NCBI RefSeq assembly: GCF_055900595.2
Contig: NZ_CM148325.1
DNA: 64,000 nt
Reading direction: 5' to 3' (one strand)
The notes beneath the pieces were generated by a model. The model saw only the letters and a program-made list of their open reading frames with translations, was not told where the DNA came from and made no database searches. Made by a program: the position numbers and the translations under genes. How positions within the stretch are numbered: the first letter of the stretch is position 1; each line of letters opens with the position of its first letter. This document shows, in pieces, positions 25,483 to 40,842 of the stretch.

Positions 25483-25889
25483 GTGAAAAGGTGGTGTTCA
25501 GTCAACTGAGCCGTAAATTTATTGATGAGAACGATGCTACGCCCGCCGAGGCGCAGCAGGTGGTCTATTACAGCCTGGCGATTGGTCACCACCTTGGGGT
25601 TATCGATTGCCTGGAAGCCGCGCTCACCTGCCCGTGGGATGAATATCTGGCATGGATTGCCACTCTGGAGGCGGGCAGTGAAGCCCGCCGTAAAATGGAA
25701 GGCGTGCCGAAATATGGTGAGATCGTTATCGACATTAACCATGTGCCGATGCTGGCCAACGCATTCGATAAAGCCCGGGCAACGCAAACTTCGCAGCAGA
25801 AAGAATGGAGTACCATGCTGTTAAGTATGCTGCATGATATTTATCAGGAAAATGCCATCTATTTGATGGTGAGGAGACTGCGTGACTGA
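25479..25889 (+). CDS. hycH: formate hydrogenlyase maturation protein HycH
   Basis: 136 aa, conserved position. Confidence 0.92.
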
Positions 25890-26352
25890 CGTTTTACTCT
25901 GTGTTGGCAATAGCATGATGGGCGATGATGGCGCAGGTCCGCTGCTGGCGGAAAAGTGCGCCGCCGCGCCGAAAGGTAACTGGGTGGTGATTGACGGCGG
26001 TAGCGCACCGGAAAACGACATTGTCGCCATCCGTGAACTGCGCCCTACGCGACTGCTGATTGTCGACGCCACTGATATGGGGCTAAACCCCGGCGAGATC
26101 CGCATCATCGACCCGGATGACATCGCCGAGATGTTTATGATGACTACCCATAACATGCCGCTGAACTACCTTATCGACCAGTTAAAAGAAGACATTGGCG
26201 AAGTGATTTTCCTCGGCATCCAGCCGGATATCGTCGGTTTTTACTACCCGATGACCCAGCCGATTAAAGACGCCGTAGAAACCGTTTATCAACGACTTGA
26301 AGGCTGGGAAGGGAATGGTGGATTTGCGCAGTTAGCGGTGGAAGAAGAGTAG
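25882..26352 (+). CDS. hycI: hydrogenase 3 maturation endopeptidase HycI
   Basis: 156 aa, conserved position. Confidence 0.93.
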   Translation: MTDVLLCVGNSMMGDDGAGPLLAEKCAAAPKGNWVVIDGGSAPENDIVAIRELRPTRLLIVDATDMGLNPGEIRIIDPDDIAEMFMMTTHNMPLNYLIDQLKEDIGEVIFLGIQPDIVGFYYPMTQPIKDAVETVYQRLEGWEGNGGFAQLAVEEE

Positions 26353-26376
26353 TTTTTCAGTAAGGAATTCAGGGAA

Positions 26377-27150
26377 TTGAAAATCAGAACAGGGATGTGC
26401 GCTTTTTTATTTTGCTTAGTGCTTCCTGCGCAGGCTACCAGCTTTACCGAATATCTGCCAATGAGTGACAGCGAATACGCGCAAAAGCGGGCGCTGAAAC
26501 CTCTCCTGACTATGCCTTATTATACCGAGCAAACCTGGCATTTTAGAAAAGTGGGCGTTGCTGGCGTGACGCTTGAGAAGATGCCAAATGAAGAGGATTA
26601 CTGGCAATTAACTGCTAAAGACCGCGCCGGTAAATCCTGGAAGGTGCCTGTGGGTATGCTGGCAAATATGGCGGGCAAAGGGCAACTCTATCGCGCCGAT
26701 CTGGATCGTAACGGCATTCAGGATCTGGTTATCTGGTTACCAAGTGCTGGTAATGGTCTGGCTCCTTATGCACATTTAATCCTTATGACGTTCACGCGCG
26801 ATGGTCGTCCCTGTGTCTTTGAACCCTGGGGATTCTACACCGCAAGCAAAACTGGCGTAGATGATTTGCTGGATTTGCAAGGCAATGGCCACACACAATT
26901 GCTGGATATGCAGTTTAATTCTGGTTACTGGATAACCAGTCTGTATCAGGTAAAAGACGCCAAATGGCAACGTGTTCACGGCTGGTTTGGCAAGTTAAGC
27001 TATCCCGCGCTCACGCGTTTCACTTATACCCCCAACCGTAAACTCGTCCTCAAACCCATTGCCGGGCGCGACCCGCAAACGGAAGATCTGGCGTTGACCC
27101 AGCGTTGCTTGATAACAGAGGATATGCTTGATGGGGTGAATCAGCTCTGA
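26377..27150 (+). CDS. hypothetical secreted protein with FG-GAP/VCBS-like DxDxNG motifs (start may be ATG at 26395)
   Basis: 257 aa ORF; signal-peptide-like N-terminus (CAFLFCLVLPAQA); motifs DLDRNGIQDLV and DLQGNGHTQLLD; lies between hycI and a REP pair. Confidence 0.6.
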   Translation: MKIRTGMCAFLFCLVLPAQATSFTEYLPMSDSEYAQKRALKPLLTMPYYTEQTWHFRKVGVAGVTLEKMPNEEDYWQLTAKDRAGKSWKVPVGMLANMAGKGQLYRADLDRNGIQDLVIWLPSAGNGLAPYAHLILMTFTRDGRPCVFEPWGFYTASKTGVDDLLDLQGNGHTQLLDMQFNSGYWITSLYQVKDAKWQRVHGWFGKLSYPALTRFTYTPNRKLVLKPIAGRDPQTEDLALTQRCLITEDMLDGVNQL

Positions 27151-27159
27151 TGCCAAACG

Positions 27160-27250
27160 CCAGATTGCCCGATGCGCTGCGCTTATCGGGCCTACATGTC
27201 GCACGAACTATGTAGGCCGGATAAGGCGTTCACGCCGCATCCGGCACGTT
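27160..27250. repeat. BIME (pair of inverted REP elements)
   Basis: gcccgatgcgctgcgcttatcgggcctaca ... tgtaggccggataaggcgttcacgccgcatccggca. Confidence 0.8.
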
Positions 27251-27253
27251 TGC

Positions 27254-29835
<2,582 letters not shown>

Positions 29836-34204: not shown

Positions 34205-34295
34205 CAGTGCCGGATGCGGCGTGAACGCCTTATCCGGCCTACACATGCGCTTCCCGTAGGTCGGATAAGACGCGCCAGCGTCGCATCCGACATTT
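34205..34295. repeat. BIME (pair of REP elements) between hypF and norW
   Basis: gccggatgcggcgtgaacgccttatccggcctaca ... gtaggtcggataagacgcgccagcgtcgcatccgaca. Confidence 0.8.
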
Positions 34296-40737: not shown

Positions 40738-40842
40738 AACTTTTCCTTAATGTAGCGGCGGAAGTCCTGTAGGCCTGATCAACGTAGCGCATCAGGCATT
40801 CTATTAGTCTCGCGGAGATCCTTAACGGATCTCCGCTGTTGA

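Follow-up and report, generated by a model that had tools for sequence, protein, structure and literature searches.

A two-unit BIME between the convergent hyc and asc operons of Escherichia coli, and probable loss of the neighbouring gene by deletion between short repeats inside its reading frame

The DNA analysed here (the window) is a stretch of 64,000 nucleotides, numbered from its first letter. It comes from E. coli, and the 1.8 kb used as a query are 100% identical in strain Z0117EC0005. The features follow each other in the order hycH, hycI on the + strand, a 257-aa ORF also on the + strand, a pair of REP sequences and ascB on the - strand. hycI, the last gene of the hyc (formate hydrogenlyase) operon, occupies positions 25882..26352 (+), as indicated by its ORF and by the RefSeq annotation of Z0117EC0005. 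The 257-aa ORF extends over 26377..27150 (+) in the ORF list; RefSeq starts it at ATG 26395 and enters it as 'hypothetical protein' WP_032303647. ascB, coding for a 6-phospho-beta-glucosidase, was located from its ORF at 27254..28678 on the - strand and is convergent with the 257-aa ORF. The stop codon of the latter (27148-27150) lies 15 nt before the first REP sequence, REP1, and the stop codon of ascB (27254-27256) lies 7 nt beyond the end of the second one, REP2.

The N-terminus of the 257-aa ORF resembles a signal peptide (MKIRTGMCAFLFCLVLPAQA|TSF). No family was found in Pfam or NCBIfam for the 257-aa protein, and likewise none for HigB, which is encoded by a cassette present at this site in other strains. 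Two D-x-D/N-x-N-G-like motifs, DLDRNGIQD and DLQGNGHTQ, are visible in the 257-aa protein. On the 5′ side of the gene ATG, a 16-nt segment, TTCAGGGAATTGAAAA (26368-26383), is also missing from K-12 and O157. This segment holds the alternative TTG start at 26377, just 3′ of an AAGGA Shine-Dalgarno-like motif. On the other side of the REP pair, beyond ascB, ascF (28687-29835, - strand) encodes 382 aa here versus 485. An in-frame deletion of 103 aa (309 nt) joins ...ITPAVT to WKTKNPEL..., and much of the PTS EIIC membrane domain is gone; the asc operon of the window strain is probably non-functional.

REP1, a z1-like palindromic unit found by pattern and consensus match on the + strand at 27166-27195, reads TGCCCGATGCGCTGCGCTTATCGGGCCTAC. 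It agrees with the published z1 consensus at 26/29 positions (the y, z1 and z2 consensus sequences used for scoring are from PMC11208160), and of its three differences, T>C and A>G are compensatory changes in the stem. REP2, at 27212-27246 on the - strand, is a y-type palindromic unit matching the y consensus at 34/35 positions. The two units are inversely oriented and placed tail-to-tail, which is the arrangement of a BIME. Their foot tetranucleotides, CTAC in REP1 (27192-27195) and GTAG in REP2 (27212-27215), follow the REP consensus and face each other across a 16-nt linker (27196-27211) of sequence ATGTCGCACGAACTAT. The REP arms form a 16-nt inverted repeat with 94% complementarity, and the whole pair spans 27166-27246, about 81 nt.

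A loose REP pattern detected 6 copies in the 64-kb window as compared to 0-1 per shuffle, and a query containing the REP pair had a median of 31 match sites per E. coli genome. The element is highly repeated, and it is extragenic, the pair lying between the stop codons of two convergent ORFs. Overall, 27166-27246 is a genuine two-unit BIME in which a y REP is paired with a z1-like one, and it belongs to a known kind of E. coli repeat. A previous reading of this DNA made from its letters alone (hereafter the sequence-only reading) had recognised such a pair between an extra gene and ascB, and in this it was right. Two details need correcting: it had described the pair as abutting ascB, where 7 nt separate REP2 from the ascB stop codon, and had set the gene end 10 nt before REP1, where 15 nt are found.

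Other REP sequences occur in the same window. A y unit at 34209-34240 gives a 32-nt pattern match identical to that of REP2; together with a z2-like unit 17 nt apart it forms a second BIME (34209-34291). Outgroup loci L011, L013 and L015 carry the same pair, and additional isolated REPs occur near positions 40771 and 62909. The RefSeq record of K-12 has no REP feature annotated at the ascB/hycI-side site. Searching Rfam with the REP pair returned only sub-threshold matches, to the REP-derived naRNA4 family, and assignment of the pair to a known RNA family was rejected on the ground that all these naRNA4 matches fell below threshold.

On either strand, the REP pair is predicted to fold as one long G+C-rich hairpin, the energy being -53.8 kcal/mol for the + strand (z = -3.35) and -54.3 kcal/mol for the - strand (z = -2.96). 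No U-tract was found at this hairpin on either strand. The possibility of an intrinsic terminator between the convergent genes was rejected, as no such site was predicted in 26200-27500. The roles of REP and BIME elements have been summarised (PMC1525189 and PMC1187871). Those ascribed to BIMEs comprise protection of mRNA 3′ ends, attenuation of transcription and binding of gyrase, Pol I and IHF. At this locus, the BIME sits between two convergent units, ascB being one and hyc together with the 257-aa gene the other. By analogy, its most likely role lies at the RNA level, where the REP hairpin would shield the 3′ ends of both hyc-side and asc transcripts from 3′-exonucleases and would attenuate read-through from one convergent operon into the other.

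In order to describe variation at the locus, ten configurations of the hycI-ascB interval taken from complete E. coli genomes were aligned. Prevalence was then estimated in a census of 5426 complete E. coli genomes, in which counts correspond to megablast coverage thresholds and about 520 of the 5426 genomes fall outside all counted allele classes. In every asc-positive configuration examined, the BIME is present in the ascB 3′ flank. It is kept whatever its left neighbour, be it the gene, the gene followed by higBA, the gene followed by higA, higBA only or the deleted gene.

The higB-higA toxin-antitoxin cassette, of about 0.9 kb, is found in many strains between the gene and REP1. A 5-bp duplication, ACTGA, brackets the cassette: one copy, on the left, overlaps the gene stop, and the other, on the right, lies 15 nt before REP1. 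Alignment places the corresponding empty attachment site of the window at 27146..27150 (+), overlapping the ORF stop codon; it reads TCTGA in the window and ACTGA in other alleles. Such a single-copy empty site is seen in the window, in E69, in E. albertii and in E. whittamii, and the filled site of L003 extends over about 1553-2462. The census counted 1092 genomes with complete higBA and about 1417 with higA only, higB being deleted.

Two related observations were made outside E. coli. In MOD1-EC7003 (L011), a 25-nt remnant lies between two copies of ACTGA. In K. spallanzanii, inspection by eye of locus L014 (3390-3629, 4826-5376, 5542-5775) revealed putative small toxin-antitoxin-type ORF pairs and two SymE-like ORFs, located in the space that hycI, the gene homologue and ascB leave between them. 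The K. spallanzanii locus suggests that the hycI-ascB interval may be a recurrent landing place for toxin-antitoxin modules across genera.

The BIME itself varies between strains. When reverse-complemented, the core of the window linker, GTCGCACGAACT, agrees with the K-12 linker, GGTTCGTGCGAC, at 11/12 positions (the K-12 linker is at 872-887 in L001, as compared to 27196-27211 in the window). Consistent with this, the K-12-type query matches genome H157, which is of the window type, in minus-strand orientation. The K-12-type linker was counted in 2847 of the 5426 genomes, the window-type linker in 449, to which 196 shortened matches are added. Because E. albertii and E69 carry the K-12 orientation, the orientation found in the window is the derived one. 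Recombination or a template switch between the inverted REP tails would fit such a flip. Two further types of alleles affect the pair: the linker is absent, with REP1 fused to REP2, in 376/5426 genomes, and the y REP (REP2) is absent in 309/5426, all sampled rows of the latter being O157:H7 or O55:H7.

Larger changes occur on the right-hand side. The asc operon is absent, with a DUF4259 gene instead, in 726 of the 5426 genomes. In B2-type E. coli (L008, L010), the entire ascGFB is gone and the DUF4259 gene, with its own hairpin, stands between a degenerate REP1 and hydN; this degenerate REP1 copy persists in asc-less lineages. For three asc-less configurations (B2-type DUF4259, E. whittamii and MOD1-EC7003), homology to asc-positive strains stops at the REP1 tail, the junctions being placed only to within a few nt. 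These configurations may not be independent of each other, as the one of MOD1-EC7003 looks like a derivative of the DUF4259 form. In E. albertii, a stub of about 40 nt corresponding to the ascB 3′ end is the scar of an asc-operon loss. Since E. albertii retains this stub and the B2-type is without it, asc was lost in more than one way.

IS621, a bridge-RNA-guided element of the IS110 family, adds to this variability. In the three genomes inspected (3/3; L016, L018 and L019), it is inserted at GGGCCT|CTACAT, that is, at the CT core of REP1; in L016 it occupies 223-1500, at a point equivalent to window positions 27192-27193. The three insertions differ in REP1 loop sequence and in transposase allele, and their left contexts are higA in two cases and the scar of the deleted gene in one. 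Unlike these loci, the window itself has no IS621 at REP1. It carries in REP1, however, the 11-nt sequence ATCGGGCCTAC (27185-27195, + strand; CT core at 27192-27193), an exact match to the IS621 target with its CT core. [quoted passage not shown] The commonest natural IS621 target is ATCAGGCCTAC, to be compared with ATCGGGCCTAC in the window REP1, and the K-12 REP1 allele reads ATCGGGCCTTC, a mismatch to the IS621 target. In the IS621-bearing copies examined, the linker on the right of the element is always of the window type. The number of genomes with IS621 in REP1, about 196, derives from the shortened-match pattern together with the three inspected cases; a query across the IS621/REP1 junction was unusable for counting the locus, IS621 copies in other REPs also matching it. 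Overall, comparison of the alleles indicates that the BIME is a local hot spot for small rearrangements, affecting the linker, the y unit, IS621 insertion and asc loss.

A role of TnpA-REP in rearranging the BIME is possible. More generally, the rearrangements might be driven by REP-specific enzymes, either TnpA-REP/RAYT, which would cut at CC|TAC and within the linker, or the IS621 recombinase, which would use the CT cores, and the linker inversion and the REP1-tail junctions would then be products of these enzymes. TnpA-REP indeed cuts linkers as well as the CTAC of an inverted REP, and in vitro it can recombine these sites (PMC3333891). Moreover, the inverted segment corresponds to the 20 nt between two inverted CT cores, insertion of IS621 at the REP1 CT core is observed, and in the three asc-less forms homology ends within about 6 nt of CTAC. 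However, an identical inversion would result from any recombination or switch of template involving the two 16-nt inverted arms, and the observed linker alleles carry 1-2 substitutions in addition to a simple flip. We consider an enzymatic origin of these rearrangements unlikely. Still more doubtful is an extension of this idea in which the REP pair would be a very small invertible element: TnpA-REP/RAYT or the IS621 recombinase would flip the 20 nt that separate the CT cores, and this would gate IS621 insertion. If true, the derived linker orientation combined with a perfect IS621 target in REP1 would explain the orientation found with all examined IS621 copies, in two left contexts.

Presence of the 257-aa gene is also polymorphic, as the sequence-only reading had supposed. 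The gene is full-length in 1461 of the 5426 genomes, and the junction of a 727-nt deletion is found in 2783. K-12 (L001) and O157 (L005) are gene-less, yet they are not clean empty sites. After hycI, their sequence reads ...CAGGGATGT|TCTTGATG(G/A)GG...TGA, in which the start codon of the gene is joined to the 3′ end of the ORF. K-12/O157-type strains have thus kept the ATG close to the RBS together with the final ~23 nt of the ORF and its stop codon. Absence of the BIME from gene-less strains was looked for, and the BIME is still present in K-12: the 15-nt segment on the left of REP1 and the BIME itself are intact, and both REPs are there.

The deletion junctions coincide with a 7-nt direct repeat. 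The left GGGATGT copy is at 26392-26398 (+) and includes ATG 26395; the right repeat position is at 27119-27125 (+), about 40 nt to the left of REP1. The right copy is degenerate in the window allele (AGGATAT) and reads GGGATGT in L003, L004, L009 and L013. The GGGATGT repeats are exactly 727 nt apart, and 727 nt are missing in K-12/O157-type strains. Indeed, deletion from one repeat to the other in an L009-like allele would give exactly the K-12 sequence ACAGGGATGTTCTTGATGGGG. Because 727 = 3n+1, the frame is lost in the K-12 stub (ATG TTC TTG ATG GGG TGA). Taken together, the alignments argue that the gene was very probably lost in K-12/O157-type strains by deletion between the 7-nt repeats inside the ORF, and not at the BIME. 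Most simply, replication slippage or a microhomology-mediated deletion between the GGGATGT repeats would produce this outcome and would leave both ORF stubs and the entire BIME in place. A second type of loss is represented by L007 and L008, with a deletion running from about nt 190-210 of the ORF into higB, this left limit varying with the start codon chosen; about 837 of the 5426 genomes belong to this type and retain only the first 164 queried nt of the gene.

The ancestry of the gene was examined with the 257-aa protein as the query against a single genome of each species, a search that returns gene-bearing species only and in which gene-less species could not appear. Homologues were found, in synteny, in four other species. 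They directly follow hycI in E. albertii (80% identity), in E. whittamii (93%) and in Escherichia sp. MOD1-EC7003, of a cryptic clade (96%), and the homologue of Klebsiella spallanzanii, with 63% aa identity, lies between hycI and ascB. In E. albertii, hycI and the gene are followed by the two REPs, by the 3′-terminal ~40 nt of ascB and by hydN; in E. whittamii and MOD1-EC7003 the order is hycI, the gene, REP1 and hydN. Across E. coli strains, the gene is unusually divergent: its alleles (window 26395-27140) share 85-100% nucleotide identity and fall into several discrete bands. Because of the ORF stubs in K-12, the synteny, the Klebsiella homologue and the divergence of the alleles, the 257-aa gene is in all likelihood ancestral at its position and its absence the result of deletion, the BIME being an old resident of the ascB 3′ flank. 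The polarity is called here from the K-12 stubs, the synteny and the Klebsiella homologue rather than from a full species tree.

The same sequence signature is left whether a segment is inserted with duplication of 7 nt or deleted between 7-nt repeats. The GGGATGT repeats could accordingly be viewed as the target-site duplication of a 727-nt insertion into a K-12-like interval, the short form being ancestral, the more so as an outgroup search able to return only gene-bearing species leaves short-form outgroups invisible. However, such an insertion would need to begin 4 nt after an existing start codon, to end about 25 nt before an existing stop and to make, in addition, one continuous 257-codon frame. 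No mobile-element features were seen beside the 727-nt segment, the out-of-frame K-12 stub fits a 727-nt (3n+1) deletion, and the 63% identity in K. spallanzanii together with differences of up to 15% between E. coli alleles points to a long residence. We regard this polarity as highly improbable. The sequence-only reading, in which the gene was inserted by hycI with the BIME as the recombination junction and boundary at its right end, draws on the mere 15 nt between the BIME and the gene stop codon, on the enrichment of BIMEs at strain-specific loops in E. coli (PMC1187871) and on the lack of the gene in about half of the genomes, but it is hardly credible given that the start codon and the last ~23 nt with the stop persist in gene-less strains, that the multi-genome alignment maps both junctions within the ORF, at the 7-nt repeat and with the right one about 40 nt from REP1, that the K-12 BIME and the 15-nt segment on its left are intact, and that the gene is syntenic in four other species. 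The broader proposal that BIMEs serve as rearrangement junctions holds for asc loss, IS621, y-REP loss and linker inversion or deletion, and fails for the 257-aa gene.

Deletion between repeats internal to an ancestral ORF, next to a BIME that rearranges on its own account, corrects the polarity of a common intuition in annotation: the 'extra' gene of non-K-12 strains would be the ancestral state and K-12 would carry a deletion scar. It also illustrates that a BIME near a variable gene need not be its junction. The site offers a compact natural case in which linker inversion and loss, loss of a unit, IS621 insertion at a bridge-RNA target and deletions of operon size that stop at a REP tail are brought together, and it could serve for testing REP-directed recombination.

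Comparison with the known BIME classes can be made using the published definitions of BIME-1 and BIME-2 (PMC3333891, PMC1187871). Like BIME-1, the element has one y and one z1 unit forming a single inverse pair, and it is extragenic between convergent genes. BIME-1, however, has a long conserved L linker, often with an IHF site, and measures about 140 bp overall, whereas the present element measures about 81 nt and its 16-nt linker is too short for an L motif. With BIME-2 it shares the short linker, the tail-to-tail units and the polymorphism of length and linker between strains, which are found in atypical BIMEs as well. Unlike BIME-2, in which y and z2 units occur in tandem with an S linker and a DNA gyrase site, it consists of a single pair and its non-y unit has the length of z1 (29 nt); alignment of REP1 to the z2 consensus needs gaps and reaches 27/36. 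By these definitions, and as far as its sequence features go, the element is an atypical, short-linker BIME.

BIME-associated, strain-specific 'loops' of E. coli genomes are described by Chiapello et al. 2005 and reportedly also by Bachellier et al. 1997. As at these 'loops', the BIME described here lies at the edge of or inside a strain-variable segment; a unit may be present or absent, the y REP missing in O157/O55 being an example, and the length is variable. Unlike at those loops, the BIME does not delimit the largest local polymorphism, which is that of the 257-aa gene. The element is already known in kind and K-12 carries the same copy; only the linker inversion and its association with IS621 insertion form a mildly novel thread.
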